Positions 1-38,990 of a stretch of 64,000 nucleotides of DNA are shown here, piece by piece (positions within the stretch are counted from its first letter, which is position 1; every line of letters begins with the position of its first letter). A program made the translations under genes and the position numbers. The notes beneath the pieces are model-generated. The model worked only from the letters and a program-made list of their open reading frames with translations. It did not search any database and was not told the origin of the DNA. Origin of the DNA: Phoronis australis (Eukaryota > Animalia > Phoronida); assembly GCA_002633005.1 (NCBI GenBank), contig NMRA01000086.1:989602-1053601 (forward strand), in the 5' to 3' direction.

Positions 1-743
1 AAACTCAGTCACGACATGGCGGATAGAGCGCGCGAGCTTTACCACTACACCACCACGATTTAACTACTAAGCTTGTGCTAAGAGACCTACATGTTTGCGG
101 TCCACAGCGTTTGCGCACGAAACCTACTTCTTGTTGTAATGCTTATTACACGTTTTATATTTTGTGCAATCGGTTGTTAACAAATTTGTTGTATTTAAAA
201 TAGTCTTCAAATGCCCAAAAAACCAAATCCGTTTTTCGTGTTGGCAATAAGGACGGGATTGCTTTGGAAATCGTCTTAAGTTAAGGTTTGACAAAGAGAG
301 AATTATGAGTTTCTGGGTGATTCACCAAGGCTTCGATTAAAATTCACATCTTACCAGCAATTTCTGTTTTTTCATCGTCACTCAGGTTCCATTTTCTTTA
401 AAAAATGAAGTAAATTTTCTTCATTGCACAGTGTAGCAGACGACGGAAACGGAGTCGTAGTGCGCAGCGCCATTGCCGGTCGCCTGGGATATCGCAAGAG
501 AGCTTATGCTTAGCCATAGTTCCGTTACGAATGCGCCGTGTTCCGAATATGACACTTAATTGGATCTGAGACCTCCCCCCAAACACTAAAACTGCACACA
601 CTTAAATCTTGTTTCATCCGTGTAATTTTAATTACCGGGGTTAATTAATAAACTAAACATTTCCCTACGCTCTTGCTGTTTTATTTTTTGCGGCAGCCAA
701 GAGGGGGGGCCTGGCCCCCTGGGCCCCCTTAAATCTGCCTATT
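1..743 (+). mobile_element. ~1-kb non-autonomous TIR element, copy 1 (cut by window start)
   Basis: Near-identical to ~2030-2765; ends ...ccccttaaatctgcctatt. Confidence 0.85.
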
Positions 744-1361
744 CATCTACTAGGTATGGACATGTTATCATTGTCCAGCACGTGGCGAGCGAATACGGTA
801 CAGAAAAGTATACAATTGTAGTATTAAAGGGTTTGATACATTTCATGTTTTTCTACCTATTTAAAAAATCCACTTTTTCAAGAAGTTTTGGAACTAGTGT
901 TTGATATATTTATTTTGTTAACGTGGGTAGGGAACAGGAGTTTTTTATGTTTGTACATGTATTGTGGTAAAAACACAAATTATCGTCGCTGCTATGTGTT
1001 GAATTTAGGTGAAGATGAACATCCGTACAACTTTTTTTGTTTGGAATTCAAAATTCTTCTTTGCCACTGATCAGACTTTGATCCTGAATTGTCGCCGACT
1101 GATCAAGCAGCTCAAGTTACAGACGAGGTAAACACTCCATCCTCTATTGTCTGGGTTGAGCTGCATGCCTACGCGGTAATACACAGTGTTTTTGGAAAAA
1201 CCAGTATTTATTAAATAAGCAACCAAGACGTTTACTTTTGAGCAATGGCTGCAGCTGTGAGGCCTAAGCACACCTGATGCACCGCAAAAGGCACCAGGTC
1301 ACCTGCCTATTTTTCAAAGAGGTCTGGAACGAGATAAACTTTGACTGAATTGCAATATCAT

Positions 1362-1503
1362 GTGCAGCGCAGCACTGAAATAAGTGAGAGGCTATAACCC
1401 CCAACCCCCTACGGTGCGCCGCCTATGCTGACCACAGGCGGCGCAGCGGTGAAATAAGTGGGAAGCTATAGCCCCCCCAGTCCCCTATTGTGCGCCGCCC
1501 ATG
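1362..1503. mobile_element. Two tandem ~70-bp mini-TIR elements
   Basis: Unit cacaggcggcgca...gaaataagtg...gctata...tgcgccgcccatg occurs twice; termini are inverted. Confidence 0.6.
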
Positions 1504-1744
1504 AAAATTGAAAGTGGTTGTCTGCCACTGAAACAGAGATCGACCTGCTCACCAGGTAATTTAGGCGATTGTTCGTATATGTTTTTAATCTCTTTTGAAA
1601 TCAAAGCATTTCCTTTTAGTTTCAAATTAAAAAAAACCGATCTGTCAAATGCTGGCCACTTCGTCGATTTTTCTCCCACAAGGCAAAGCACGTCTCCGCA
1701 TTTAGTATATATATATATATATAGAGCAAGATATAGGTGTAGCA

Positions 1745-2765
1745 CAGTGGCGGATCTAGGATATCACAAGGGGGGTCCAACATTTTGTCCGGCTGTAAAC
1801 ATTTGCGCACACTGAACCACGATTGTAGATGCGCATAGCACCGAATGGGGGAAGGTCGGGAGGGGGGCAAACCCCCCTCCCGTCCAGGAAATTTTTCTGT
1901 TTTTACCTCTAAAAATCAAGCATTTTCCTTGATTCCTGAAGTATTATCCAGGAAAAAAAGGCAAAAAAAAAATAAAAAAATAAAAACGGAGTACGTGTCC
2001 AACAGGAAAAACATCAAATACCAAAGACTCGAACTCACGACCTTGCGCATACCGCGCGCGTGCGATACCACTTCACCACCACGATTTAACTACTAATCTA
2101 TTAATAAGAGACCTACTTGTTTATGGTCCACAGCGTTTGCGCGCGAAACCTACTTCTTTTTGTAATGCTTATTACACGTTTTGTGCCATCAATTCTTAAA
2201 AAAATTGTCGTATTTAAAATAGTCTTCAAATGCCCAAAAGACCAAATCCGTTTTTCGTGTTGGCATTAATGACGGGATTGCTTTGGAAATCGTCTTAACA
2301 TAAGGTTTGACAAAGAGAGTATTGCGAGTTTCTGAGTGATTCACTAAGGCTTCGATTAACATTCACATCTTACCAGCAGCTTCTGTTTTTTCATCGTCAC
2401 TCAGGTTCCATTTTCTTTAAAAAATGAAGTAAATTGTCTTCATTGCACAGTGGAGCAGACGACGGAAACTGAGTCGTAGTGCGCAGCGCCACTGCCGGTC
2501 GCCTGGGATATCGCGGGAGAGCCTGTGCTTAGCCATAGTTCCGTTACGAATGCGCCGTGTTCCGAATTTGACACTTGAAATTGGATTTGAGCCCCCCAAC
2601 CCCCAACACTAAAACTGCACACATTTAAATCTTTTTTCATCCGTGTAATTTTAATTGCCGGGGTTAATTAATAAACTCAACATTTCCCTACGCTCTTACT
2701 GTTTTATTTTTTTTTGCGGCAGCCAAGGGGGGGGGGGGGCCCTGCCCCCCCTAAATCCGCCTATG
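1745..2765 (+). mobile_element. ~1-kb non-autonomous TIR element (hAT-like MITE), copy 2, full length
   Basis: TIRs CAGTGGCGGATCTAG / CTAAATCCGCCTATG; three copies in the window; no clear TSD. Confidence 0.85.
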
Positions 2766-3576
2766 CAGCATATTTCCCTGATATAAAAAAATGTGACTGA
2801 CCTCAAGAGACTTCAAGCAACTGACTGTGAGCGCATGCACGCATTTATCATAAGTGGAAGGGAGACTAGAAACCTTGTGGTAACTAAAGAATTTTTCCTT
2901 CGCGCGTATTTAAAAAATCAAGAATTCTGTGATTTTTTTCTGGACATTTTCTTACAAGGTAAAATGAATTACTGTGCTAGACTTTGCGAGATGGTACTTT
3001 CGTCAAGAATGGTTTAAATGATATCGTTGACGAGCTTTCGCATTCCAGGCCTCTTTAAGACCTTGACTTCAGACTCTCTAATGTTTACCAAATACAACAA
3101 CGATTCTCCAAATGAAACGTGCTGCTCATTAACTTAAAATACCGGCACTTAGTGATATTCCATCAGACCTCAAAATCAATACCAGTTCAAAGTTCACGAA
3201 GAACATCTAAGCTCGCAACTCAATAAAACATATATATATACATCCCATTAGACTTGATAGAAATATTTTGCTATTGAATGCATAATTTACAGTTTACAAA
3301 ATAATGTATTATTAAACTCAAGGTTATTTACAATGTTCAAAGTAATTTCACTGTGGATATATTTGAAAATATAACACTGAATTTGAAATCGGGTAGAAAT
3401 TCCGTGCGTTCACGATGGCACACGTAAGAATCCCAATCCAAATCCAAATAAAAATTAAAAGAAGCAGATTTTAAGCCGATTTATCCAAAAGTACATATGA
3501 TACTAAGGATTTTCTCACGGTGTTCGTCCTATTTCACTCCCCTTGTTGCAGCACAGTTCACAGGCACCATTTGCTG

Positions 3577-3795
3577 TTAGTGGCCAAGCGCTCCGATGCC
3601 ACATATGACCGTCAAAATGACGAAGAGACAGCACAGCACGCGGTCTATCACCTTAGCCATCATCTGCCATTCGCCGGACGGTTTCGACCCAGACTTCCCG
3701 GTGTTGCTCTCAATGTCATTTAAGGTGGCCTCTTCGCTTTGTCGCGCAGGCCTCCTCCCCTCTACGCAGCAAAACGTCGCCAACCCGAAAATCAA
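3577..3795 (-). CDS. nAChR-like exon 9 (short intracellular loop, M4, stop)
   Basis: tttcag|LIFGLATFCC...GEWQMMAKVIDRVLCCLFVILTVICGIGALGH*; EWxxxAxVIDR is the nAChR pre-M4 motif. Confidence 0.92.
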   Translation of the reverse strand: MIFGLATFCCVEGRRPARQSEEATLNDIESNTGKSGSKPSGEWQMMAKVIDRVLCCLFVILTVICGIGALGH

Positions 3796-6700
3796 CTGAA
3801 ATGTAAAGAAAATAGTAGAAAATGATGCAGCCTGATTATGTTCGATCAAGTTAGAAAGAACCATAGGAAGAGGTGAACATTGCATACGAAATAATTCAAC
3901 TTCCCCCCCGGCGTCTTCATTTAGATGAGGCCAAAGTCCGAGGCTTCTGTCAAAAAATAAGTTTTGATTTAGGCCACATTTCGCTAAAAATTGATTTTAT
4001 GTTTTTCCCCAATCTGTTCAGAAGTAATAGCTGGGATCGAAAAAACCGAAAATCCGTTATTTGTCAATATCAAGCTCACATTTGTCCCAAATTTTAAGAC
4101 CTTGATTTCTAGCATCGACGAACTTTCATTTTTATAGATTCCCTGAAACTGCCTCTTAGTAGACTAAGGACAATGTGAAGCCAATTTCATACTTGTTAGT
4201 GGCTTAAGTCAAAACTTATTTTTTGACAGAAAACAAGTGGTTAATCCTTCTGTAAGTGAACTGTTTTCCTCACCACGAATTGATATAACGGATCATCAGG
4301 TGACTCGTTTTTGACCGATGTGCTAGTTGCGCGTAAAGGGAGGCAGAGTGACCTAGTAAGATAAGTGTCCGCTTCCTTTATTCAAGGTCGTGGGTTTGAG
4401 TGCCACTGGGGCACACTGATAAACCTTTGAGTCAGATCTCTAGCTCTTCAGACCAGTTTTTGAGCCTAGAAATTGTTCCAGGTGATCAGTGCATAAATAT
4501 ATGCCTTCGTTACCAGTGGTCATTTAGTAACATCGTCGAAAGTCGGAAGTGAGATTCGTCCAGGAACGGTTGTATGATTGGGCTAAAGTGTGTTTAACAA
4601 GGAATAAACTACGGTAATCCTATACATTACAAGAGGGAGATTCAACGCCAATTAAATAATGCACAAATTGCTATACATTACGAATATTTTCGCAAATGGC
4701 AAAAATTACAAAAACAAAGTTTTGCCAGGAAAAAATATATGGAAAACGTGAGTCTCAGTCGGCAACCCATGGCCGACGGCCATTGAACTTATTGGGTCTA
4801 CTGCCGTTACTTTTGACTAGAAAAAATTATCAGGGAGACAAGGGAACACGCGTGCACCGGGGGGGGGGGGGGNCTACCAAAATTCGGCGAATGCACAATT
4901 CATTGCTCTGAATGTACCCAGTGAACCTTAGTAAAAGGTCTACATTCTCAAAAATTCGAGCCCCATTTTTAGCTGGGTGCGAGCGTGAGAAATCCTAAAA
5001 ATCACAAAAAATTTTTTAAAAAGATTTGCAAATCTTCCAGAGAAGCAATCAGATATTCTGCGACAGTGCCGGCGGGCCGGCTATACCGAACAATTGGACA
5101 TCGGATCTAATTCTTATTTCTAATTAAGAACGTTCTTAATTTATGAAAAATATCAAATTAGGGTTTTCTAAATTGAATTACGGCTCGTTCATTACCGCAG
5201 TAATCACGACTGTGTCTTTGGGCCCTTAGGCCAAGCATAAGTCTGGACTTCATATGTCATATTTTCGAGAATTTCCTTTTACACTTGTGCACGTACATGT
5301 ATCAACAGTATTCATTTTCTAAATTTCTTGGAAACTAGGAGCAAAGACTGCTTTGATCATTTTAGATTGAAAGAGCACATTTATTATACACTATATTTGC
5401 TTCCTGCTTGCTGCGGTTACAGTTTGCGTCAAGTTACGTCGAAACTTTCAGAAAAATTAAACTGAAATGCAACATTTTGGAAACTCCGAAATTCGTTGTT
5501 TCCTGAAATCTATAATATTTTTTCAAATTAAAACTCTTCTCAAATAACAGGCCGTTTGAGATTCCACATAGTATCTTATTATAAATAAGAATGAATTTTA
5601 GACTGATACCTGTCTCATTTTATCGGGAATCACGCTTGACAAAGATGAATTATACCACATGTTAAGCACCAGCACTGAACACGTGATCGAGATGCTAACC
5701 AATAACAGGTTGATTTCCACGAGTCTTCCTGAAAATATAAATGATTTTTGATATTTGCAAACATTCACCAAACACATGTATGGGAAGTAGTTGAACAGCA
5801 GAAACATCAAAACGATGTCAGATGGCAGGCATCTCTACAGCGCCGATCAATTACCACACGATCGATTCTTGGGTTCCTCGTTAAGTCATGTTTAGTCACG
5901 TGATTGTAAAAGTGATATTGATTGATAAAGTCGGCTGCAGGTTATAGAGACATTGTTCAGGCTTACCTGAAGTTTATCTGATAATGTAGTTACACTTGTA
6001 TCAATTATGAAAATTCAGATGCGAAACAGTGCCTTTTTCAGTGAATTTTGTAAACTTAAATGAGAAATGAGCATACAAAACAAGTAATAAATTAAGTAAA
6101 CAGACACTTGACGTCATTCCACTTTAAGGCACGTTGACTGGACTCCTGCTAATCAACACTTTATAGTTCCTTGTTTGTATTGTATATTTTTTGTTGAAAA
6201 ACATGTTTGTCTTATTAACATAGAGGCACGTGAAATGTTATTATTGGCACTTCGTGAAGTGGGCTTGCATATATTCAACTTCTCATGTTAACACTCCCCA
6301 TGCAAAAATAGACTGGAGTAGAGAGCTCTGTTTTGCACCGTTTTTGCTGAAATCGATAATCACTTTCACAATTTAAATAAATACTGATACAAAGACATGC
6401 TGAAATTTGCTATCCTTTTCTTAACTTGTATAAAAGAACTCTAAGCAAATGGGTCGTGTTAATCAAACTCTCACAATTCAACAGGCATTTACGAAAGTTT
6501 CGAAAAGTAGACACACGAACAAATAAAGAGTTGACCGTTTGAGTCGAATCAAACTTACAAAATGACGAAATCAAATTGGTGGTTAGTAGAAGGAATGCAA
6601 CCTCTTTACATCCGGAACATGAACATCGTGAATTTGAATGATTAACAATGCAAAGGTATTAATCCCAGACCGTTCATTTCCATAACTGACATTGGTTTCG

Positions 6701-9700
6701 AACATACAACAGTTGGCACCACCAGTGATTGGTATAAATGAAGCCAATATTTAACTTATGGTTGACTTCATTTGCTTATACGCCCAAGGGAGGATATTCT
6801 TTTCTATATGACTATGAAGAAGTTTGAGACTTCTTTACTATGACTGAGTACATCGGTTGTAAGTTGCATTTCAGGCGTTGAATAAGAATAAAGTTTACTG
6901 TAAAACAACGCTTACCGAGTTTCCCGGAAGTAGCGTTGTTCCTCAAAGCAGCCAGCATTATCAACACGCCAACACCTACAACAGATGGAAAGATTTGAAA
7001 GTATACGCGACAACCTGTTTCGGAGGGTAGCTACACAAATACTACTCCTCTCAGGGCTGATAAGAAATCTAAGATTCAAAAAAGTGTTCAGTTTCTGAGG
7101 GAGGAGTCATGAATCATACCCGGTGCTTACGAAGAAACGCACTTTTGCTACGCCTGCCAAAGTCGAGGGTATAGTAAATTATCATCTTTTATTCCCATCA
7201 ACCTTTCACTTAAATTGTTCAGACGAAGGGGTCCCCTGCCACTTGTAACGACCTGCCTTCAACTCGGGTGGGCCGTTTGATGCCAGAGACATGCCAGTCT
7301 ATAAATTTAGCAACCATTGTGTGGTGTTCAGGATATCTGCTCTTACGGAGATGTTGCATTGTACTGTTTTAAAAAATAAACCAAGCCACCCTAACAACAC
7401 GACTGCCGTACTCAAAAACGTAGTTCCTTCATTTATAAACACGGCTCACGTACTCCAATAACTCAGTTCCCCAAATGACAAACCTAACTCGCACGACCGC
7501 CAGGCACGTCTCACTAACCACTAAACACGGTGCCAGACTCACAAAACGCGGCTTATGCACCCCAAAAATCGTTTCCGGACTCAACAGAACAGCTCACTCT
7601 GTACCGTGTTTGTAGAGCAGTTTTCATTCGTAAAGAAATTATGTTTATCATGAGTTTGTCAGTCGTGTTGTTCGGGTGGCCTGCAAATAGCATGCCTTCC
7701 TTTGTCAGTCGAGTTGTTCGGGTAGCCTGTAAATAGTATGCCTTCCGTAGCGCGAAAGTTATATTGCGACATCCGCCATTTTGTATGAGCAAAGGTGTAT
7801 CAACTCGTCCTACGGATATTGTCGCTCGAACAACATGTGTCGAGAACGACAATATAAGTCACAAGAAGGCATCAATAAAAAGCGGTCACATAATTTTAAA
7901 TAACTCAAGGACAAAGCATTAGCTCACGAAACAAAATATATATTCATAAACCTCATCTGATAAGTATTAGGTTTGAAACAAATTCAAAGCAAAGTATTGT
8001 CACTTTTTAATAATAAACCTGAAGACGTATTTATCACAGGGAAACGATCTTGATTCCAGGAAATATCACCTACTGATACAACTGTTATCAGGGCATTTCC
8101 TGTACTCAGGTGTGACCTCCGTGGCGCTCAGCTATTCTAAAACCTCGTCAGAGTGCATTTCAGCTGGCTCATTCGTGTACATGTATGTACAGTATATCGT
8201 GGACTGCTCGTTTTTACAACTTTGTCAGTTCAGCTGAAAACTATGTGCACCTGTGCAAACGGTGCAGTGATATCTCAAACTACTGAACTAAGTCCTCTTG
8301 ACAATATGTTGCTAATCATCATTTAGCATTGTTTCGGGTTGGCAAATTTTGAATTTTTATATCCTTCTATGAAAAAAAATCCTTTCTAAAATCTTTCGCG
8401 TGACTTTTGGGAGTTACTTAAGCAGGCCCGTAGGAAAGTTAGCAATAATGCTGGCATAAAGTAATTCGACTTCACCAAACGTCTCCCCATGTGATCCTAA
8501 GTTTCTAGATTCTCGACCCTGTCGCCATTACTTCCGCCCCCAAACTTTAACTAGATCAGACCACCTTCAGACTAGAACGCGTTACGCGTACAGAACGCGT
8601 TACGCGTATAGGACGCGTTACGCATATAGGGTATGATTTTGACCGTAAGGTCGCCAAAAGATGGATTTCCCAACCAAAATCATTGTTTAGGTTTGCTTGT
8701 GCAAAAGTAATACGAGAAACACCCACTGAGGATTGCGAAATCAAAACGTGAAGTAGAATCACGAGCTCGAAATTAGGTAGACGCAACGTCGTCTCGCAGG
8801 TCACTGAAGCACAATTAATTTCATATAAGACAAGCCTCCACGATTGTCTAAAATCGTAAACAGTCGATTTTCATAAAGACATGAACATGAAGAAAAAAAA
8901 CCACGTAACCTTTGTTACGAGAAGAAAATAACCTTGACACCTTGGTCCGGCATATGGCAAACATTACTATATTTAAAGGCACACACGATGAGTTTTTTAG
9001 TTAACTGGAGGTTGTTATTTTTACAAGATATTTTTGAAACGGGTAATTCAATGTATATGTCATGCGCAAAGATACATGTACTGTACTTGGTGGGTCAGAG
9101 CAAGGGAAATCGAATTTTTTTCGGAATTATTTTCATGTTAGAGTGAATTGTAGTTCGTTCCAGTGAGTAGCCTGTTACTGCTTAATGCCCTTCAGAAATC
9201 TCTATTTACGATTGCCAGTACGTGTATTTTGAGCACCTCAATCCGTTCGAAATGTACGCTGCACACGAATCATAAAAGTACATGTATCCCCAACAATCTG
9301 GTTGACACGTGATAACGACCTTCAAAAAATATTTTTTGAATTCTTTGTAATGGGTGTAAATATTTTAACTGTTGTAAAACTACCATTTACAAGTAGCGGT
9401 TCCCAAGTTCTTCAAACTCTCATTCGTTCGATGGCGTTAAATGCTATCGTCCGAATGAGGGTTTCTTGATGTGAAAGGCTATATCATTGAACATCTGGAA
9501 AAGAGTCAGTTAATACCATCAAGAGGGGAAATTTCTTAACATAAAATTTAACACGATTTTAGAAAAAACAGGAAACGTGAGGAAATTGCTTCTATGGTTG
9601 AGACCCCCTCCATGAGCGGTCCTTAACAAAAAAGGATACAAATACTGAAAAGCAGGAAAATGTTTGCCATGTCGTATGCCATCAACGGGACCCCTTCAAC

Positions 9701-12700
9701 GGCTGGGATCTCTAAATACGAAAAAGAAAAAAATTCCAAATGACCATAAATTGGTGCCATCATCAACACTCCTCTCCTCTCAGTCTCCCAAATTACATTC
9801 ATCGCCAGAAAGGGTTCGCTGGAGAAATGCAAAAAATCTGGACCAGTTTGCTCTCGATAACCTGTGCATGGCAAGTTTTATCGGACATTTTTTGAAGCAC
9901 ACGTGTATGCATGTAACGATCCCCGTTTTAAATACAATTTTAAGTCAAAGAATGCAGTCAATGTTTACATTTACCTAAAGTCACCTTTTCCCTTGATTCT
10001 GGAGGCAGTAGGAACACCGTGGGGATCAAGAACACGAGGCAGGCCACAACGATAAGCTCTGAAACTGAACTGGCTTCTGGTTCTTTCGATTTCGATGCCT
10101 TCACCTTGTTTTTTCTCAGATGAAAATCGTACGTGATATCTTCGTACGGCTCAGGGCAGCATGAGTATCGAATCACATGTTTGGTGCCTTTAGCCTTTAA
10201 AACGGTCCAACCTGGATGGGCATTGAATTCCTCCATATCAACATGTGGAAGATTGTTGTAGTGAGAAAGCGTCACCTATTGGGAGAAGTTCAAACTGTTT
10301 GCAACCTATCGAACACTACTACCGTTTTCACTCCTTCAGGGCTCTACGGATGTTCTCACGAGTTGTATATCATTTCCCATCTACAGCAGTCACTTTCTTG
10401 CGAACAAATTTCTTCTCTCGTGAGTTACAATTCTCAAAAGGCAGGAGCAAACAGGAGCTTGGTACAGAATTGGTCATAAACAGCTGGTCATGAATGACAA
10501 CACTGTTTGAGTTGTTCTTTACAAGGATAGAATAGTGTTTACAAAAAATAGTTGTGCCGCGTGAGAAGAATATGCATATTGCGTTCATGAATAAAAATCA
10601 GTGCTGGTGAGTGAAAAAGCTCATGTCGTTCGTGAGGTAAAATGACTAACATTTCTAAAAACGCTTGACAAACATTTTTATAGAAATTTCCTACATAGGT
10701 ATTTTCGTTAATCAGGCAGTTGTGGTTTTGGTCAGAAATAGTTCCGTCATTCAGTCATATCACATTTTAACCCTAGGTTCAGTGTTATAGAATTAAACAA
10801 CGAACTTCATGATTTACCAAATTCCCGTTGTAGACCCACGATCCAAACTTCAAATGACATTTCTGATCATCTTTAACATTTCCTTGGTCATCCCTGTCAA
10901 TAGTACAGTGCGCGTGCAGCGAAACCCGTGGTAAGTACATGATTGAACCATCATGGCTGACTACCACCATTGTATTCATCACACCATGCTCTGGCTCGAT
11001 GCTAGGGCAAGATAAAGGAGGGTCATTACATCGTGTTAGACCAATCAGAACATTCGAAATGTAGGTCTATACCGGACACATTTTCCGCATATACGACCGG
11101 ACAGTACATTTGGGAATACCATAACTTTCCCTTACTTTCTTAAAGGCGAAGGCAAAACCTTTTTTCGAGTCAGTCAACATGCCACAGTGTTGCTGCGTTC
11201 CGGGATGTACTAATTATCGTCTCACGGATAGAGGAACAACCGTCCCACATGCCCGAGTGTCCCGCGACACACTCTCACAGACTAGTGACCTGAGCACACA
11301 GACTGGTTGCACCCTGCCGTGTGACTGCCTAGCCACACACCTGACACCTTCTTATTAGCTCCAATACTTTAGACATGCCCACAATAAACTTATCTAAGTT
11401 TGGCTCACCGATCTGTTCATTGAACAACGAACTGTCCTCTTTAGTGGGTGTCGAACGGGGCCTGTATTCACTCCCACTACTCAACATCGCAGCAGGGCTG
11501 CTTATAGGCTTTGGGCCATGATAAGTATAACCCGGTACGCAGCAACAGTGTGGCATGTTGACTTACTCGTAAACAAAAGCAAACGACGACCGAACTTATC
11601 AAAACCGAGGTAGATCAATGACTGACTCGGCAGCTCTCACAGGCAAACTATATGAAAAGAAATTGGCACGAAATTCTTGCCTCCCAAAACGTCACTTCCG
11701 GAGTAGAGATCGAATAATTAAGTAAATTACAAAAAGCCGTAATTAAGTGAAAAATATGTCTGGGATAATCAACGAACCTTATTTTTGCTAAAAATGACAC
11801 GATTGAGAAAGGTTGCCTTCGCCTTTAAGAAATGGACAGCAAAAGCGCAAACAAAGAAAAATTTCTACAACAAACTACATCCCATACGGATAATCATGCA
11901 TAAAAATGCTGTGTATTGATCCTCCTGGTTTCAGCTACAGTATTGATAAACCATAGCGTATATTGGGTATATTCGGTACTTCCAATCATACACCAGGGCT
12001 TATCTGCCAAAAACTACGGTAGTTTATGTCATCACGTCTTAATCTTGCGTCTGATCGATTTACATAGTCTGTTACTCTATAATAGAAATGTCGTCTTCCA
12101 ATTTGTCTTTCAGAGAGTTTCGATTTTCTTCGAAGATCTTCCATCTATTCCATGATTTAAATCAAAGGGCAGAATAGATCCGTGACGAAAGAATTATTCG
12201 ACAGAGAGACTAATTATTAAGTGCTAAACTTGTTTGAGTGCTCTTAATCAATTATTAAGTGAATGAACCAAATTCTCATGAAATAACCCAATAGCTAGAT
12301 TAAAATCGATTGTTGCTGCCGTCACCATTTTCTGAGCATAAATCAAACAGGCTGTCTGGCTCGATGCCAGAGGGTTTATACTGCAGCTTGACAAAAAGTT
12401 TCATCAGCCCACTTAAAGCTGCAGCTTTGTCCTGGCGTGTTTCAAGGAGCTAGCGTTTTCCAGAGATACCGGTAATAAAGTGTTGTCGGTTTTTATAAAG
12501 GCGTCACTAACTTTATTTTTGTTTATGCTCTATGTTTGATGCAAATAGTGCCAATGCTGTTGTCGTTTTAATCTGTCTTGATTTAATGTTCCCATCCATT
12601 CTAGCATACTGTAACTGTACCTGTTATACAACTTGATGTCAGGGAGCCAAACGTCGCTGTTGGGAACCATTAAGCTATCGATGTCGTCGTATTCGGAAAC

Positions 12701-15700
12701 GTTCCAGCGCAACGAAGTATCAGTCCACGTCTGACATGTAATTTCACACACAAAATATGTGAACGTTAAGGATTTGACACCAGCTTCTCAAAACACAAAA
12801 TACGAAAAAATATAATAAATTCAACGATGAATTAAAACTGTCTACAACTCTCTTTTAAGAGAGTTTAAAAACACGAAACCACGTTTAAGTGTCCTGAATA
12901 TAACAGAAAAGCACAACATACAAAATGGGTTTTATTGCGTTTGCATTTCTCTTATTAGTTCTGAAGATTTGACCTATCGGATCATCAGATGGGACCTGAA
13001 ATACACCAGAGAGTCGCACTTTGTGTAACACAATTCTTTGGCCTACAAAGGTTTGACAAAATTCGGTATAATTTTTCGTCTCTCGTCTTTGTTACCTCAT
13101 TATGGATGCCTTTTTGGAATGATAATAGCGATAATCTCGTTTACATAAAAATGTGCCGACAAAACCCACAGCACAAAAAGACTGCGAACATAAACCATTA
13201 CATGTATAAAGCGTATCGCACAGTGCGGTCGATTGTCACAGAACACAAGCGTGAGAGAATGAGATTTGACAAAGAACGACATTGACATACCCTTATGCGT
13301 GCATAACGGAAAGGTATTTTGTTGTGCTGACTTCTTTGATGCTCCATTAAATATACATACATGTACGTACAGTATAGCCAACGTCGGGAATAAATCTACT
13401 GAAAAATTATACTGGTGCGTTCAATGAAACGCATTTAGGCATGGAGTTGATCACTTTGTAAACTGGAGAGCAGCACTCAAGATTATGTAGGAGATTATCT
13501 ACAAGTCTGCACAGTACAATTTGCAAAATATCTAACTAAGTATACAATTTTGATTCTGCAAAAGTGCATATTTCATGAAAGCAGAAATTCCGTAGAATTT
13601 GAATGTTGACTTTATACCAATCTGCCACTAATTACGTCATGTAACCCTGTCCTTTTAGGAAAATTTAGCGAAAAGGAAGGTACGTTCATAGCAAAACATC
13701 ATGATAAATGACAAGACCAAATTTCATATGAAATAAATGCTCAAGACAAAAATCTCAAAAATGCTGTTACAGTTTTCAAAATGATCATTTCGTTTTCGTT
13801 TAATGAAATTTTAAAAAATGTTCAAAAACATCAAAAAAGTCCTGGAAAATTTCAAAAACAATCCCTGGCAGCTTTTGGTGGAATAGTGTATTGAACATAA
13901 TATCTGAAACTTTCATGTGGGGGATCCAATCAGTATTCCTGAGATACGATGTTCTAAAGCTAGTCAAAACTGGACATTTTGGAGAATCCTACACCACCTT
14001 ATAACCCCACACGTGTGTTGTTACCGTACCATTTGAATCCACGCGTGCAGCACCAGTGATTGTTGTTCGGTGTTCTGAAAATAAACATCAAAACAAAATG
14101 CTGTTAGAGACGTCAGGACCATAGAATTGCTTTTAATGGGTTAAGCAAATATTATTCATTGGTGGCGTATTGTGTGTACTCTAAGTCATTTTTTGTTCTC
14201 AAAAATCAACGTCAGTGTGACGGACATGATGATTGGGGAAACGTTAAAAAGGCAAATCGGTATAGTGTCAGAAAGGTCAAATGTGTTATAGATATTCTAC
14301 AAATCACAGTATAAGCTAGTAATGTGCCCGTAGACACATCAGACATTGAAATTCCGACCTGGATAAAAAAGGATAAAAGAACCTATTTCTTCAGAAGACT
14401 GACCGTTTTATGAATAATGGTTTACCGTTAGAACATAATTAGAGTAGCCAACATGAAGATTCCAATTTTTGCATTTTAATAACCACAAGTTACAGAAATG
14501 AGAGCGGTGAAGAATTCATGAATATCTCGAAACAAAGACATACTTTCGGTACATGAAGGTATACACACGTGTAGCGATAATGAACAAAAATACACTGACA
14601 AAACGTTTACACGCTTGTTGAGCACGGGCGCAAATTCTCCAACCTTAGTGAGATTTCCACGTGATCCTCCGATTCGCACATATTCGCACCAGTTTGATAT
14701 AGACTATCCAAAGAACACAGGCTAGTGATCAGAATTAAACGGCATTTGTTTCATCTCATTTCATTACAACTCTCTAGACCGCCCCCCCTTTATTAAAGTC
14801 AAAAGCTTACCAGCGCTTCTAAATTGACAACTTTGAGTCGAAGTGATAGCTGAACGGGCTTGTGCCTGGCGGCTGGACGAATGTCTCTACTGTAATCGTT
14901 CAAAAGATCTCTCAGAAGTCGTTTTTCAGTCTTCACATCGTCGCAATGGGCTACTAGAAACAGGGTGAGTTCTGTTAACTGTAGGCCAACTGATTAGAAA
15001 TAAACATGTTAGTCGCCGATAGCTGACCATGACGTGCAGGGAGTGTGAACAAAACGTCTGCCGCACTCATGAAGATAAATCCTAATTTTTAAATAGGGAC
15101 TCGAATTACGTTTCCCATCAGCTCAGATCACCGACTCATGAGCTCGTGAGCTTGTACCTTGTTGTACAGTCAATGAGCACCGTTTGGGAGTCGGAAGCTG
15201 TAAAGTTTTTTGATAATGGGTGAACCGAGTTCACTGGCTCCGAAGCCGTGCTTATAAGTAAAGAATTAAGTTCACTAGTGCGACAATCGTGTTGTTGTCA
15301 GGGCTTGTCACATGCCTGTTTTCTGACCTAAAGAAAAATTTTGCGAAATCTACATGAGGTATATACTTTCAATTCGAAACTAAAAGACATATTCTGATGG
15401 ATAAGTGATAGATGTGAAGAAATCATGTAACTCTCACATCCTTCAGTTACAAACGCAGACGTGTTTTAAAAAATTACCGTTGCGTGGATTACCGTCATTC
15501 ATGGTTGACACCGTCTATAAGACCTGTAATGAGTGTCACTTGTATGCACAAGTATGTGCGGCTATTTGGAGCTCAAGTAGGCATAACGAAAATGTAATTT
15601 TGTGACAGGTTATAAACATAATATTTGATTTGTAACCCGTGACAAAACAAATACAATCCAACCTATAATTTCGTTACAATGCAGTTGGTAAGTCATACTG

Positions 15701-17885
15701 GCTTTTTATCAACAAGTCGTATTGCATTTTAGTGATATTATTGTACCGTTAGTGTGCGTATGTTTCTAAAGGCTATCGTATAAAAACACAAGAACAATAA
15801 TATCAAGCAAACAGTGTTTATTAATTACAAACCGATTACTGGATTAACGTAATTATGCAGCGACAGCAATTGTTCCTTTTGAAGCTGAGTGATTGACGTT
15901 TACGCTTCATCGAAACCGTTCAGAATTCTCCTTTGAGTCAAGACTCATGTCATTAAACATGGTCAAAGGCTTTAATGAACAGGCACTAATATCCAGGTGA
16001 GGCTAAACCGTGCTCTGGACCTCCCTCCGACAGGTATATACCAGCATCCAGTTATACCAATATTGTACTGTACATGATTTACAATTGTCATGGCCCCAAC
16101 AGGTCAGTGAGAGATGGCTCCCTAGTAAACGCAGCTATTCTCGGNNNNNNNNNNNNNNNNNNNNNNNNNNNNNNNNNNNNNNNNNNNNGGTTATTAAACA
16201 CTTTTGTTGCTCCTTGCCTCTTGTTGGTCATGAACTTAAAAGTCAACAATGCAGTGTAAAGTGAGGAGACTGGATGGTTTTTTGAACTTTACGTCTAAAT
16301 CAGGCCAAGGAAGAAGTTCGAACGAACAAGAACGCTCACTGAGGAAGAATTCGTCGAAGTTTAGGCACGTTTGCCCCAATTGTCAAAGCTGTAAATTAGG
16401 TGACCATTAATATTCGTACGCGGTACATGGTAGAGAAAATTGCATAAGTTTCGTGCATGATTATGGACACTAGTCCCATTGAAAACTGGCAAATACGAGA
16501 CAACACAGTTATGCGCCTTTATACACTGATGCGTCAGCACTGGGCAAATTTGTTAATTAGTGCGAACTCATTTAATTCGCGTAGAGCCATTGCTTTTTTC
16601 ACTGTGAAGCATAAACGCGGGAATTTAAATGTGTTGTGAGTGAGACCGCCGAAGCCTGTTAGGACCAGGGAGCATCAAAACGTCATTGCGTGTGGGCAAA
16701 AAATACTAGCCGTCCATATCAAACACAAACCTCAGAAATTTACACAAAACAGGGATTCAACAAACCATGAACAACTGTTCTTTCTCCTGATACCATTCGA
16801 GTGAGTTCGCAACAACTAACACAAAAATCTTCACAAAAAGCCGACGCATCGCTAAGTATCACCACAGTTGTGGTTTCGCTGGGGCTGAGACACACTGCGT
16901 TGCTCATATAACCAGAGACCAGGCAATAAATGTGACAGCCCCGCTTTTCGTCTAATACTCTCGTAGACACGTTGTGGTAATGCGTGTAAAAGGGAAAAAC
17001 GTGAACTACTCAGGTACATGTGTCAAGTAGTTCCGTACGAGAAAACTTCAAAACTTTTTAATCAACTACACCTTTTCTTGAAAGTCAGGGTTTCATGTAC
17101 ATCTTTTACGAAGCCACACCATCAAACTAAGGTGGCAGAACGTAAATAAGTAAATTAATAAACATGAGCACTGCGCCAGAAATTGCTTTCGCATAATATC
17201 CAGGTTCTCATTCACTCCCCTGCATACGCTCACTGGTACGACTGAGCTCAGAGGAGCAGGAGACACATTTGTGCTATGCTCGACTGTCTGCTAGTAAAGT
17301 CAGGATCCGAACCCGGTCTCCCAAGCAGGAGCCCGGAACTCAAACCACTGGGCCACACTGGTAGAACATCAGAGGGTAAATAACATGAATAATACATGTT
17401 TCTTTATTTATTTATTATTGTGATATTTAAAATGAGGGTGACCTCTTCAGTGATAGCCCCGCTTTTCGTACCTTCTGCAATCACACAATGCCCGGTAACG
17501 AACTTGGTGACAACATCCAACATGTCTACCGGCGATATGTCCAAATGTATATTATGAAACATATAAATTCAGTGCTCTGCAACGCATCATTTCCACTGTA
17601 GAAAATGCATTTACATGTACAGGTGCACTAGAAAGACTAAGACTAAATTTAAATTTAAAATCGAGGGGCGACACGATGTGGATATCATTCGGTTTATTCT
17701 TGGCTAACAGAAAGCAGGTCGGCGCTGTCCACAAGAATGATTGAAAAGTAATCCTAGACTAACTGATTTGCTAACAACTTTTGGAGCTATTTGGTATGAA
17801 GTTGTCTAAAAAGAAACTTACACGATAGCCCAAGGATCACGACCGCTGAAACCACCCAAGCGCTTTTCTGTAATACCATATTCAT
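3577..17885 (-). CDS. Divergent nicotinic acetylcholine receptor alpha-like subunit (Cys-loop pLGIC), 9 exons, 414 aa
   Basis: Exons 17885-17822, 14953-14811, 14074-14030, 12730-12621, 11001-10818, 10275-9975, 6975-6916, 5728-5610, 3795-3577. All introns are GT-AG with compatible phases; total 1245 nt ending in TAA. Motifs: signal peptide, EKRLLRDLLNDYSRDIRP, WTDTSLRWN, WLPDIKLYNS, KFGSWVY, YSCCPEPY, LPPESREKVTLG, EWQMMAKVIDR. Confidence 0.93.
4338..4416 (+). mobile_element. tRNA-derived SINE-like head (degenerate)
   Basis: A-box-like gtgacctagtaag and B-box-like gggtttgagtgcc at tRNA spacing; no intact cloverleaf. Confidence 0.35.
5610..5728 (-). CDS. nAChR-like exon 8 (M3)
   Basis: ttttcag|(G)RLVEINLLLVSISITCSVLVLNMWYNSSLSSVIPDKMRQ|gtatca; M3-like SxxxxVLVLN followed by an MX-like segment. 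Confidence 0.88.
6916..6975 (-). CDS. nAChR-like exon 7 (shortened M2, 60 nt)
   Basis: tgtag|(G)VGVLIMLAALRNNATSGKL(G)|gtaagc; phase 1-1, joins exons 6 and 8 in frame. Confidence 0.75.
8574..8627. repeat. 18-bp tandem repeat x3
   Basis: agaacgcgttacgcgtac / agaacgcgttacgcgtat / aggacgcgttacgcatat. Confidence 0.85.
9975..10275 (-). CDS. nAChR-like exon 6 (loop C, linker, M1)
   Basis: VTLSHYNN...RYSCCPEPYEDITYDFHLRKNKVKASKSKEPEASSVSELIVVACLVFLIPTVFLLPPESREKVTL(G); phase-1 gtaaat donor. Confidence 0.95.
10818..11001 (-). CDS. nAChR-like exon 5 (Cys-loop, loop B)
   Basis: IEPEHGVMNTMVVVSHDGSIMYLPRVSLHAHCTIDRDDQGNVKDDQKCHLKFGSWVYNGNL; ccctag acceptor, gtaaat donor. Confidence 0.92.
11144..11824. 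mobile_element. Non-autonomous Kolobok-like element with THAP N-terminus remnants (nAChR intron 4)
   Basis: TTAA|AGGCGAAGGCAA...TTGCCTTCGCCT|TTAA; perfect TTAA TSD; MPQCCCVPGC (+) and MPHCCCVPGY (-). Confidence 0.8.
12621..12730 (-). CDS. nAChR-like exon 4 (110 nt; loop A)
   Basis: TWTDTSLRWNVSEYDDIDSLMVPNSDVWLPDIKLYN(S); canonical 110-nt exon. Confidence 0.95.
14030..14074 (-). CDS. nAChR-like exon 3 (45 nt; loop 2 and loop D)
   Basis: tttcag|NTEQQSLVLHAWIQM|gtacgg; matches the 45-nt exon typical of nAChR genes and carries the loop D Trp. Confidence 0.9.
14811..14953 (-). CDS. nAChR-like exon 2
   Basis: tttctag acceptor, (L)AHCDDVKTEKRLLRDLLNDYSRDIRPAARHKPVQLSLRLKVVNLEAL, GTAAGC donor. 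Not in the ORF track. Confidence 0.92.
17165..17362 (-). mobile_element. tRNA-derived SINE-like element (nAChR intron 1)
   Basis: Minus strand has A box TGGCCCAGTGG and B box GGGTTCGGATCC, followed by a non-tRNA body; 3' limit approximate. Confidence 0.5.
17822..17885 (-). CDS. nAChR-like exon 1 (signal peptide)
   Basis: MNMVLQKSAWVVSAVVILGLS, then GTAAGT donor; phase 1 matches exon 2. Confidence 0.75.
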
Positions 17886-22500: not shown

Positions 22501-22765
22501 ACGGGAATCCCCCCGACATTAAGGAATCCCCGCTATTGTTTTTGTTGTTTTATTCTACAACGACAGAGGGCGCACCCGGTGGTGTACAAGTCCGTGAGAT
22601 ATGGACGAAACGACTGTACACTAAGCACATCAAGGTACGGTTGTTTGGTTCCAAAAGGGATATTCACTTTATATTTTCATAACCCTGAAAGTTGTCGGTG
22701 TAACTGCAGTGTCGTAATATTTTCAGGAACACCTCTCAACACTCTCCGACACATACTTCTACGCA

Positions 22766-23493
22766 ATGAAGAGCTGCGAAAAATCTTGCACATTTAATAT
22801 GAGCCAAACAAAGGCTTTGTTCCAAAAAGTACAATTGCGTGCTCGAAAAATGGAAGTCACAGACGTCGATCTTGTTTTATTAAATGCCATCCAAACAATT
22901 AAAATCGAAGTTAACCGGCGTTCGCAAACTCCAAAACTGGGCAAGCGCAAACGCCTGATTGCCAAGACCACGCTTCTGAGTATTTTGATATTGTCCGTTC
23001 TCGCCATTTCACTCTGGTACTGCCAGTGGCATATTTCCATTCTGAAATTTACGAAACCTGTTTTAGAGCCATTTTTGAATAATGATGCTTGCGTGATTGA
23101 TCTTCCCGAGAATTACCTTTACATCTTTCGTCCCGTTGCCGACTGTGACTTCTGCCGCAATGTATCCGGAATTGTTCGCGTGAATAATATTTCATCAGAC
23201 GATTTTGAAGAACGTTTCGTGAAGAAAGGACAAATGGTTCTCATAGAAGACGGGCAGTTTAATTGGGAATCGTTTGAAACAATGGGATTCGACAAGTTGA
23301 AGAATATGTATGTCGAGAATGACGAAAATCCCTTACTTGACCAGAGCTTATCGCCGGAATCTCGGTATAATATTCCAACGGCTTGCCATATTTCAAGATT
23401 TACAACAGGTTTTAAAAACGTGAACGATTTGGTCCGATACTCTTCGCGGGAGCTCAACTCAACAGACGGCAACAACAAGTGGTTCATAGGCTG
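22766..23493 (+). CDS. JmjC/cupin gene exon 1
   Basis: 243-aa ORF with basic patch GKRKR, then TM LLSILILSVLAISLW, a CxxC, ending GGC TG|gtaagg. Confidence 0.9.
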
Positions 23494-25556
23494 GTAAGGG
23501 AAGCGTTGAACGTCATGGAAAGCACTACATGCTATAAGCAAACTATGTGTTGTAGACATCAGTGCCCGGTTGCATGAAACAGTCTGAGATAGGCACTGCA
23601 CTAACCTTCCTAAATCCTCTGTTCATTTCTATACTTGTGGAAACACCACTTCTTATATCTTGTGATGCTGTTTTACATTAATTACTAAGTCAAAGTTTAA
23701 CAAATACAAATCAATGTGACTAGCAATCTTTTCATGCAACGACCCTTCAAAGACCAAGTCCCTTATTCCTTTTCATCAATATAGGGACTCAATTTTTGGA
23801 TATATAATTAGAAAATTATAGTAGCCAAAGATAGGCTTATAATTGAGATGGTATGATAGAAAAGTATAACATCTGTGAGTAAAGAGCGATACAAATACGT
23901 AGAAGATTTAGAGACCTTAGTTGAGACCCTTTTGGTGACTGTTTCATGCAACTGGGCGCAGGTGACATAAATGCGTGCTCTTTTTCAAAAGCAGTATCCT
24001 TAGGTTCCGTGATATATACTTTTTGATTTTCAGCTGGTCTAAATTTAAATAAAAATAAATTTGAAAACAGAATTTTGTCGTCAGTTAAAGCATAGAACTC
24101 TAGCCCTGGAATGCCAACTTCGATCTCGCGACAGCTGAGGTTGCGCCGCGCATGCGTGAGAGTTGTCTGCATTAGTTTGTTCCGGTGTATGTAATTGCTA
24201 TGCAGTTTATTGTCATTAAAACTTTTTGCAACTCCGCCATTTTTCAACCAAATTGCATAAGATTCATACCATTAGAGAGCTCTTTGTCAGTTCTTGATCG
24301 TTGTACCAGAAGCAAAGTACAAGTAATTTAATTCATAAGTAATAGACTATAAATGTGATTTCGCATACGTGACTGGTTTAAAAATATTTTTTAATTCTAA
24401 AAACCAAGAATGTTGCCAAAATGCCAAAAATAACAGCGTGTATTAGTAACCTAAAAGTAATTGAACCAGAGAAGTTATATAAAGGACTAGTTAAGACACT
24501 GGGTAAATAATTTCAATGATTCAAAATACTTCTGCCCCATAAAGACTAAGGTTTTAGAATATGGATTTCTCACAATTGCTGTAAATAATTTAGTCAGGCA
24601 TTTATCCAAAGTCATACATCTTTATATATTATGATTAATTGGACCTTTGGTGCCGTTTGAAACAATTGCATTCTTCAGTAAAACTGAACATAAATGTTCC
24701 CTGATAGATAAATACGCCCAAATAGCTTTGAAGTGTACTGTGAATAGCTCATCACATTGGTTGCAGTGTAGGATTATCCATAAAAGTTTAGAATTAAACT
24801 ATTTTCTTCCGAAAGTTTGTGATCCTGATACATGTAGTGTGCATGCATGTTACCGTGAACATGATAAATTGGATCACAGTTTATTGTTATGTTACTAAAG
24901 AAAGTGGACTCCGGAAAATTCGTATACTTATAATAAGAGATAACGTTATTTTGAACACATGGTGCATAGTTGTCACGGTTAATATTCAAGAACGAAAAAA
25001 CAACGGAACAACTAAATTGAAAAGCGGAACTTCAAGATAAAAGTCGGACATATGGATCTAAGCCAAAACGTTAAGGTGAAATATTCGCTGCAACACACAA
25101 GACGTGCCGAAAGCGTTTTTTGTCGTACGGGGTATGTAACAACCAAAAATGCCCGATAGTGTTTTTGTAGTTGAACGGGAAATTGCGGGTGCCCCCAGAA
25201 CCCACAATACGTCCATTTTTCTATTTTGTCGAACGAAGAAATATGGCATGAAAAATTACAATAGTAAAAGATAATATGGCCCTGTGTCAAAAAGCAAGAG
25301 TGGGGCAACTGGCAAATACACTGTACGCTGCCAGCAATAACGAAGTACTGGGCTGGATTCTTTTACAAGGTAAACTTTTCATTTTTTTAACTTTTATTTC
25401 ACGGTTATAGGTAAATATTACAGATAACAATAAGAGCACTTCGCAGAAGTCGAATTAACAAAAAAACGGTATCTGGGCAACAGTTAAACGTTGCAGAAAT
25501 GAATTATTATAGAAACAACTGAAAACAGCACGCATGCTCACACACAAACACACACA

Positions 25557-37250: not shown

Positions 37251-38553
37251 TCGTCGAATTTACAGATGTGTCCCTATGTGCTTTTCATCATTTCTTTACA
37301 CGAGTAGTGTTGAGATATTGCCAAAATGTACAACGTACATCTTCCAGGATAAGGTAACAAGTTTCTTATTTTTACGTGTAAGTCGTTCTTGCAATTTTTT
37401 GTTGACACTGACACGTCATAAACCAGTTGTGTATCCGGCATTAAAGTAAACTCACTCCACTTGGTAAGCACAACAATGACATCGTATTTGGCTATTATTT
37501 ATGGTATGTTTTCGTGAACAAACGACAATAAAAAATTTTTTTGATGGAGAATTAAAAAAATTAAACCTTTACCAACAAACCATAAAAGTATCTGGTGGCA
37601 GAGAACTACACTGTACTTTGATTAAAAACAATTTAGCCTGTTCTTCCCGTTCTATGCCGCATTGGTATTGGATGAAATTTTTTTGCTCACACATAAATAT
37701 ATGTATGTGCACATTATCCTCATCTCTGTTCGGCTTGGGTCTGTCTTATTTAGATCCACAGACAGTCCGAATTCGACACTTTTCAAGTAAAATATTACAA
37801 TCATGCGCACACCCAGCCTAAAATATAGAGGGCTCGAAGTTTTCGTTATGCGGACCTTTTACTGGAAAAATCAACGAGCAGTAAAAAAATAAGAAAACGG
37901 GGCCACTAGGTTAAGGCCTACGAATTGTGCATCCGCGCCAAATTCCTGTGGACTTTGTGGACTTTTGTCTCGTTTACTTCTTGTTTCATTTAGGGGAACC
38001 TTTTTTTCCCAACTCCCCAAATTGGGGGCCATTCGAGCCCTCCCCCCCGGCTGCGCCCATGATAATACAATGTATATTCGAACTGACAGTAAATATCAAC
38101 GTCGTTTTCACAAACTAACGAATAAATTATTGTGGCGAGCCGTTTCTAGTGTCTGCAGACTATAATACATGTAAGACCAGTTCGGAATAGAAACAAGTGT
38201 GCTTTGGTCGGTGACAGAATTGTCTTGATTTTGACTGACTGCTTTTGAGTTGAGGATAGAGCAGCATCACCTTGCGAGAACAACACGCTGTATGTTGCAA
38301 GGAACCGTGTGGCTATCGTCTTGGACGAATTTTCGCAAAAATGTATCAAAATTCAACCGTTCCCTTAATGTTGCCCGCAGGTATATCATCTCTGTTCTTT
38401 AATCTCTAAATAGAACGATGGATTATCTATATTGTCGTTCACGACCCTTATGCCCGGCGATGTTATCTCCCCACTTTTGACCTCTGTTTAGCTGTCCTAC
38501 TAAATTTGGTAGGGCAAAAGGATAGCAAACCACCGTGATCACACGTCAGGGAA

Positions 38554-38990
38554 ATGATTTTTGTCACATTTTCCCTTGCTTGTGTATGCTTCCTCCAAAC
38601 TCCATCAACTGGTTACCCCATCACTGCGTCATGGTTTAGGAACCGTTACTCAGCAAGCGAATGGGATGAAGCGTTGGATGCCTTCAAAAGCATAGGTGGG
38701 AACCGGGTTATTTTAGAAGGCGGAAAGATGGCTTTGAAGTCAAAAGATATCATATTGAAGGACCCTGATTTTCAGATGTGTACGTCAACTTATGGAACAG
38801 AAGAGGTTTCTTGTGTAAACGAGACGGAGAACTATCTTTTACACACGAAGAAGTTAAATATAACAGCTTGGATGACGTACCAGTTCAACGAAAAGTTCAA
38901 CGATAATGTAGTAATGCGTTGTCCGAAACTGGATGCAAAGTTCACGAAAAACGGACATACTTTCTACCGCGTTGTTGTTCCTCGAAAAAT
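38554..38990 (+). CDS. DUF4434-like gene exon 1
   Basis: MIFVTFSLACVCFLQTPSTG signal peptide; ends AT|gtaagt. Confidence 0.88.

Follow-up and report, generated by a model that had tools for sequence, protein, structure and literature searches.

An alpha-like nicotinic receptor subunit gene of Phoronis australis as a candidate membrane-tethered acetylcholine-binding protein

The phoronid Phoronis australis carries, in a 64,000-nucleotide stretch of contig NMRA01000086.1 (assembly GCA_002633005.1, positions 989,602 to 1,053,601 of the forward strand; hereafter the window, GC content ~0.39, numbered from its first letter), a minus-strand gene for a subunit that resembles the alpha subunits of nicotinic acetylcholine receptors (nAChRs). 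We consider it slightly better than an even call that this gene encodes a membrane-tethered subunit akin to the acetylcholine-binding proteins (AChBPs), its binding domain being uncoupled from its membrane domain. The binding domain would then hold ligand at the cell surface, the pore staying shut, and homology suggests that the subunits would assemble as a pentamer, that the ligand would be acetylcholine and that the membrane half would serve as an anchor and assembly module. Likely jobs would be to buffer ligand or to intercept nicotinic toxins as a decoy, with nothing in the sequence to favour either; for the AChBPs, which are soluble and have variable Cys loops, buffering, toxin protection and biomineralisation have been proposed (PMC4569296, PMC3423370). 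The initial annotation of this DNA had suggested such uncoupling on the grounds of five joint changes at the domain interface. Strong indirect support for the idea has come from insertions engineered in alpha7, a census of related proteins, RNA junctions and a bivalve family in Solemya, with three of the five changes left to count.

Gene structure and transcription

Splicing of the nine exons by their coordinates (Table 1), every intron being GT-AG, yields a single open frame of 414 codons that runs from an ATG at 17885 to a stop codon ending at 3577 with no internal stop. The uninterrupted frame proposed in the initial annotation is thereby borne out, and each motif quoted there was found at its place in the translation. 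An alternative acceptor of exon 2 at 14989 would add 12 residues (426 in all), the RNA reads favouring neither acceptor. Four exons match PF02931, two of them exceeding the curated cut-off on their own, and a beta-sandwich ligand-binding domain is present; PF02932, the membrane domain, gives a weak match in exon 9. The membrane segments M1, M3 and M4 form clear hydrophobic peaks, and M2 has just 14 hydrophobic positions.

From three raw-read RNA runs bearing the same species label (X1, X2 and X3), about 19% apiece was mapped on the region, junctions being listed from three reads upwards. The RNA check foreseen in the initial annotation succeeded for six of the eight junctions, which are joined by reads of run X3: 3-4, 4-5 and 5-6 by three reads each, 6-7 by five, 7-8 by six and 8-9 by five, with junctions 1-2 and 2-3 below the listing threshold in that run. 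The first mate of the junction reads lies on the plus strand throughout, as expected for minus-strand RNA in most stranded libraries, and no indels were listed among the reads over the gene. Because the junctions flanking the exon of the lengthened linker and the exon of the short M2 are seen in reads, neither oddity is a splicing guess. Adjacent alternative splice sites are present in the sequence, none with listed reads; introns 6 to 8 hold one 19-residue hydrophobic frame, terminated by a stop, and no other junction is listed in the reads. Transcripts that restore a canonical M2 through other exons, which the initial annotation had named as contrary to its proposal, are missing among the junctions listed for X3.

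The agonist-binding site

The aromatic box, or cage, is complete, as had been claimed from the sequence at the outset: each of its five residues was located by position in the 414-residue frame, namely W81 in loop D, Y119 in loop A, W176 in loop B and Y219 and Y226 in loop C. Together with the vicinal C221/C222 this is the combination found in nAChR alpha subunits. The WxPD motif is present, as is a Lys/Tyr/Asp triad (K172, Y219 and D228), which we take to act behind loop C in the manner of a K145/Y190/D200-type triad. Searches of solved structures returned alpha6 as the best match of exon 6 (E 2e-10) and, for exon 5, Aplysia AChBP along with nAChRs (E 3e-6).

Changes at the domain interface

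The Cys-loop Pro has been described as the sole residue absolutely conserved among pentameric ligand-gated ion channels, the Asp of its motif pairing with the pre-M1 Arg, and the Pro of M1 as the best-conserved helix position (PMC4795631). The pre-M1 segment is similarly constrained in its length. One or two residues inserted there in alpha7 abolish currents and make the domains independent, ligand binding persisting, and zero indels are reported in the 37-residue pre-M1 segment of 72 functional subunits, which do tolerate indels in the Cys loop, M2 and the M2-M3 loop (PMC11601209).

A census of 282 proteins yielded 187 Cys loops in a redundant set with about 100 vertebrate alpha3/alpha6 rows; the alignment sets are redundant as well, and the counts therefore describe rarity and are no probabilities. 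In 171 of the 187 loops, 13 residues with [FYW]PxD were found. The Phoronis loop has 15 polar residues, without the motif and its Pro, and departs both from the 13-residue loop of nAChR alpha subunits and from the [F/Y]PxD motif with its invariant Pro (PMC4795631). The distance that separates the loop-C Cys pair and the end of M1, scored in 223 of 290 proteins, is 42 in 198 of them, 43 in two, 36-41 in 12 and above 43 in 11; in Phoronis it is 51, a net gain of nine residues, and the pre-M1 Arg is replaced by Lys. The 11 long rows comprise the Phoronis subunit, seven Solemya-type rows, P0018 and two artefacts, P0068 (apparent intron read-through) and P0075 (a pattern mis-hit), which were dropped from the census. 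All 155 PxD-bearing loops with a measurable M1 show a spacing of 39-42, as against 51 in the PxD-less Phoronis subunit and 68-74 in the seven PxD-less Solemya-type rows; of the remaining eight PxD-less census rows, seven had no M1 found and one is a mis-spliced urchin model. Motif loss and linker lengthening go together in the census.

The columns of the conserved Arg and of the M1 Pro, occupied by these residues in at least 90% of 56 aligned rows, hold K237 and V258 in Phoronis. The charged linker had been put at 20 residues; the polar stretch R236-E255 does have this length, but the net insertion is nine (51 against 42). An AlphaFold model of the exon-6 fragment shows beta10, a 13-residue coil and M1, with a predicted local distance difference test score (pLDDT) of 56 in the coil block and a predicted template modelling score (pTM) of 0.39; a Foldseek search with this model gave no match under E 0.001. 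From M2 0' to the end of M3 there are 47 residues, compared with 54-56 in 31 of 31 others, a shortening by seven to nine where nine had first been given. The M2-M3 Pro is indeed missing, a trait shared by three of the 31 others. M2 13'-20' has a mean hydropathy of -0.70, the comparison rows ranging from 0.46 to 2.81, and identity to relatives is 5-27% in the Cys-loop interior, linker and upper M2 compared with 33-50% over beta7-beta10.

Because a single inserted pre-M1 residue in alpha7 abolishes coupling and spares binding (PMC11601209), uncoupling is the likely outcome in Phoronis. As it breaks both the Pro invariance and the pre-M1 length, the Phoronis subunit may be regarded as a natural counterpart of engineered uncoupled receptors. 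The alpha7 pre-M1 mutants resemble it in their longer interdomain linker and untouched binding site, whereas they are laboratory constructs with one or two inserted residues and an otherwise normal interface (PMC11601209). A literature search that covered few subscription papers and excluded supplements such as that of PMC6896357 found no natural four-helix subunit with such anatomy described. The shortened M2-M3 loop contains an N-glycosylation sequon at N296 (6932-6940, minus strand); if glycosylated, the site would obstruct any residual domain contact, but it may be too close to the membrane for use.

Relatives and phylogenetic placement

With nAChR alpha subunits (alpha6/alpha3/alpha7/alpha9; PF02931 plus PF02932) the Phoronis protein shares the fold, the five cage aromatics, the vicinal Cys, WxPD, the M1-M2 motif and probably the four hydrophobic segments, and gene calls from other genomes (P0008, P0006 and P0066) end where Phoronis exons 6 and 7 do. 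It differs from them in the PxD-less 15-residue Cys loop, the nine additional pre-M1 residues, the exchange of Arg for Lys, the lack of the M1 Pro, the shortened M2 to M3 segment with its polar upper M2 and a short intracellular loop. The soluble AChBPs (Lymnaea, Aplysia, Bulinus, Biomphalaria, Capitella and spider AChBP; ACCBP) have in common with it an intact cage and a polar, FPFD-less Cys loop, which is of variable length among them (PMC4569296). These proteins are secreted and have no membrane domain, whereas the Phoronis transcript has no stop after beta10 and runs through M1-M4, reads joining exons 6-7-8-9. The subunit thus appears to be neither a canonical Pro-loop channel nor an AChBP, yet its sequence is plainly that of a derivative of the nicotinic alpha family.

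The nearest full-length proteins are intact invertebrate receptors with 26-31% identity (Lineus P0020 = XP_064630377.1, P0109, P0053 and Tubulanus P0106 = XP_074662439.1). P0020, P0106, P0109 and the urchin proteins P0163-P0173 have a similarly short intracellular loop but keep [FYW]PxD and the 39-42 spacing; searches found no experimental characterisation of them. P0163-P0173 (Strongylocentrotus, Lytechinus) form an expanded alpha-like family of ~350-370 residues with PxD kept, a pre-M1-to-M1 spacing two to three residues short, mostly no M1 Pro and an intracellular loop that is nearly absent. In the P0020 prediction, three F5/8 type C galactose-binding domains precede the nicotinic-like subunit, which could reflect either a genuine fusion or the merging of gene models. 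One metagenome scan gave no match and another three distant intact receptors; L001-L003, on short metagenome contigs, are nicotinic-receptor-like genes that lack introns, are intact and share 25-30% identity with the Phoronis protein. Atlas look-ups returned generic receptor fragments alone, and the window holds no paralogue.

Separate trees of the two domains, as advised in the initial annotation, were built, and the neighbours in them are intact invertebrate receptors rather than AChBPs, predicted channel-less proteins being the sole AChBP-like rows. Binding-domain trees with the interface columns removed comprised 40 rows, or 27 after 13 long, fragmentary or redundant ones had been dropped. 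The Phoronis binding domain pairs with P0020 in both (84/87 with 40 rows, 94/77 with 27), never starred, and the membrane domain groups with P0109, P0020, P0106, P0034 and the Solemya rows (84/89); terminal branches are long (1.2-1.95). A starred pairing with urchin P0032 (100/92) was rejected: P0032 is mis-spliced, its complete relatives keep YPYD/FPYD, and the grouping disappeared once P0032 and the interface columns were removed.

A similar anatomy in Solemya

A second case of this anatomy is provided by predictions from the protobranch bivalve Solemya velum, P0041, P0154 and P0157 (KAL5007574.1, KAL5006793.1 and KAL5007578.1 being among the family), together with P0010, P0155, P0156 and P0158, and the more distant P0018. 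The family consists of predictions without annotation and is no described family; the three Solemya velum genes, listed on contigs of equal length, are possibly on one chromosome. The members of the family lack PxD and have a charged pre-M1 linker longer than normal by 22-32 residues, or by 26-32 in the seven rows with a spacing of 68-74, loops A, B and C and four membrane segments being kept; the M2-M3 Pro is absent in both rows scanned. In contrast to Phoronis, their Cys loop is shortened (8-9 residues) rather than lengthened, M2 is full-length and hydrophobic, and the M1 Pro is retained. In the AlphaFold model of P0154 the binding domain and the helices are predicted with confidence and the linker falls below pLDDT 50; pTM is 0.51, and junk C-terminal sequence lowers these scores. 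Against whole nicotinic receptors it aligns over ~450 columns with a root-mean-square deviation of 25-36 A, and the binding and membrane halves are therefore not docked in this model, which was folded without an intact control.

A single origin of the Phoronis and Solemya forms appears in none of 200 binding-domain bootstrap trees, the two standing apart in all best trees, and is not rejected by the approximately unbiased test (binding domain p 0.24 and 0.29, membrane domain p 0.09). To judge from these sequences, the two anatomies probably arose independently. The Solemya binding domain is sister to the channel-less Sinanodonta prediction P0139 (KAL3841423.1) in an early tree (97/94) and in the 27-row tree (98/93), a relationship that the 40-row tree leaves unresolved, and for the Solemya membrane domain the sister is P0034, an intact receptor (98/93). 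The P0139 model may be truncated, and the solved structures that it matches best are nAChRs, not AChBPs. A repeated evolution of tethered AChBPs, in which the Pro loop is lost, the pre-M1 segment lengthened and the membrane domain kept as a stage toward soluble AChBPs, in both Phoronis and protobranch bivalves, the latter's forms being sister to a channel-less mussel protein, is offered as a tentative scenario, with the balance leaning somewhat against it.

Function and alternative explanations

Several observations weigh against a tethered, uncoupled binding protein in Phoronis, the redundancy of the census among them. The loop-2 Glu is absent from 11 of the 31 PxD-bearing relatives and an exact GEW is found in five, with the Trp of this position retained in Phoronis; of the five interface changes said to occur jointly, those in loop 2 and GEW are thus ordinary variation, and those in the Cys loop, the pre-M1 segment and M2/M2-M3 stand as exceptional. 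The intact receptor P0020 likewise has no M2-M3 Pro in the segment scanned, and sea-urchin relatives with PxD have a spacing of 39-40, so that length is not strictly fixed within the clade. Lower M2 keeps E-1', K0', T2', G6' and I9', residues 273-288 being 69% identical to intact P0109, and a mere anchor has no obvious need for such residues. An intact-looking cage, moreover, need not mean acetylcholine binding, since Alpo4 has the cage aromatics and yet shows neither binding of acetylcholine nor a response to it (PMC10338036). Exon cover is thin in X2 and nil in X1, from which expression appears to be low and nearly confined to one run of three. No orthologue was found, the best exon-6 identity being 48% among the 150 matches listed, and age or long-term conservation is therefore unsupported; the orthologues with the same five changes that had been hoped for at the outset did not appear. 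Binding, assembly and currents of the subunit are, throughout, predicted properties.

Decay would account for some of these points. A transcribed duplicate from the invertebrate nAChR expansion that lost its channel function and is drifting would be expected to lack orthologues, to have long terminal branches and to be weakly expressed, and lophotrochozoan nAChR expansions are large and structurally varied, with binding domains that lack a Cys loop or are joined to a different membrane domain (PMC6896357). This explanation is nevertheless improbable, as a nine-exon frame has stayed open at ~30% identity to the nearest relatives, with all indels in frame, every cage residue kept and the damage confined to the interface. 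Read variants show a synonymous excess: 11 of 30 listed differences are coding, six synonymous and five nonsynonymous, with a ratio of nonsynonymous to synonymous polymorphism of 0.24 over all coding sites (binomial p 0.02), and the linker accounts for three of the five replacements (R236S, A242P and S245A; linker versus rest, Fisher p 0.06). As evidence of constraint these 11 sites, covered by 3-9 reads, partly linked and from other individuals, are suggestive, not firm. It is highly improbable that the subunit still works as a ligand-gated channel through a rebuilt interface, the longer linker and the shorter M2 compensating each other. The insertion of nine does equal the deletion relative to the commonest length, the filter residues are kept along with what we take to be the K145/Y190/D200-type triad, and indels in the Cys loop, M2 and M2-M3 are known from functional subunits, but the two indels sit in different elements with polar surfaces on both sides, and this channel would have to dispense with both the Cys-loop Pro (PMC4795631) and the pre-M1 length found without exception in the 72 functional subunits (PMC11601209). 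A functional AChBP-5HT3 chimera is cited in PMC4586589.

Two further alternatives grant the membrane domain a role beyond anchoring. A silencing or tuning subunit would join intact paralogues in heteropentamers, supplying binding faces and no gating force, and lower or reshape their current. Intact clade members are similar to it in the M1-M2 loop, lower M2, the post-M3 segment and the M4 motif, it has kept its principal (A, B, C) as well as its complementary (D) face, and PMC11601209 leaves open whether normal length is required of all five linkers. Such a role is unlikely, no partner being known and no paralogue lying within the window, and an M2 some two turns shorter may fit poorly beside normal subunits. 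A ligand-independent pore, conducting cations as a leak or under the control of lipid, pH or allosteric drugs while the binding domain rides along, is suggested by I9' and A13' being the sole remaining hydrophobic rings: the series of pore-facing residues is E,T,G,I,A,N,N,S, in which -1' retains the cation-filter Glu and 16' and 17' form polar rings, and isolated M2 helices are able to form gated pores (cited in PMC11601209). It is distinctly unlikely, since the complete aromatic box would go unexplained if binding had no effect, robust currents were absent from uncoupled alpha7 mutants (PMC11601209), and the Solemya M2 is full-length and hydrophobic with Ile at 6', an open pore hence being no shared trait of this anatomy.

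If the tethered binding protein is real, it would represent a non-channel use of a full-length Cys-loop scaffold and would suggest that AChBPs originated by uncoupling first and loss of the membrane domain later. The Phoronis subunit would also be a ready reagent for the question of whether coupling needs all five linkers intact. In annotations of invertebrate genomes, proteins of this kind probably pass wrongly for ordinary receptors.

Feature coordinates and other elements of the window

Table 1. Exons and selected elements of the Phoronis subunit gene (window positions)
Feature	Position	Strand	Content and support
Exon 1	17822..17885	-	start codon; hydrophobic segment like a signal peptide; thinly covered by reads in X2 and X3; 1-2 junction absent from listing
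Exon 2	14811..14953	-	N-terminal helix and beta1; PF02931 E 4e-4; read variants: 4 synonymous, 1 conservative
Exon 3	14030..14074	-	45 nt; loop 2, Trp81 of loop D; joined to exon 4 by 3 reads
Exon 4	12621..12730	-	110 nt; WxPD motif and loop A Tyr119; both junctions in reads
Exon 5	10818..11001	-	beta5-beta7, Cys loop, loop B Trp176; both junctions in reads
Cys loop	10857..10907	-	15 residues between cysteines; polar; no Pro, no aromatic residue
Exon 6	9975..10275	-	loop F, loop C, lengthened pre-M1 linker, M1, M1-M2 loop; both junctions in reads
Loop C	10144..10167	-	both Tyr and vicinal Cys pair
Pre-M1 polar stretch R236-E255	10057..10116	-	20 residues, net +9; 6 K/R, 3 E; predicted coil 238-250
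Exon 7	6916..6975	-	60 nt; M2 short and polar from 15' onwards; M2-M3 Pro absent; sequon N296; both junctions in 5-6 reads
Exon 8	5610..5728	-	M3 and start of short intracellular loop; both junctions in reads
Exon 9	3577..3795	-	intracellular loop, M4, stop codon; PF02932 match below the cut-off (E 0.006); 5 reads across the junction

A bacterial promoter scan and an Rfam scan of positions 1-25000 gave nothing. On the plus strand, an open frame of 259 codons at 22718-23497 encodes a hydrophobic segment and CxxC motifs; it has no Pfam match, and its look-alikes in the Atlas are eukaryotic hypothetical proteins, some bearing a Cupin_8 domain. Open frames of 151, 372 and 155 codons at 38539-44661 (plus strand) resemble exons of one secreted protein, the first weakly matching DUF4434 (E 0.024). 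Intron 4 contains a dispersed repeat (11162-11827) with inverted ends (11162-11217 and 11518-11573) and copies near 26100-27500; diverged RNA reads that stem from other copies cover it heavily, and part of it resembles what is presumably the start of a THAP-type zinc finger. Copies of a 700-870 bp repeat, ~88% alike, lie in opposite orientation at the two ends of the window (9-2767 and 62924-64000).

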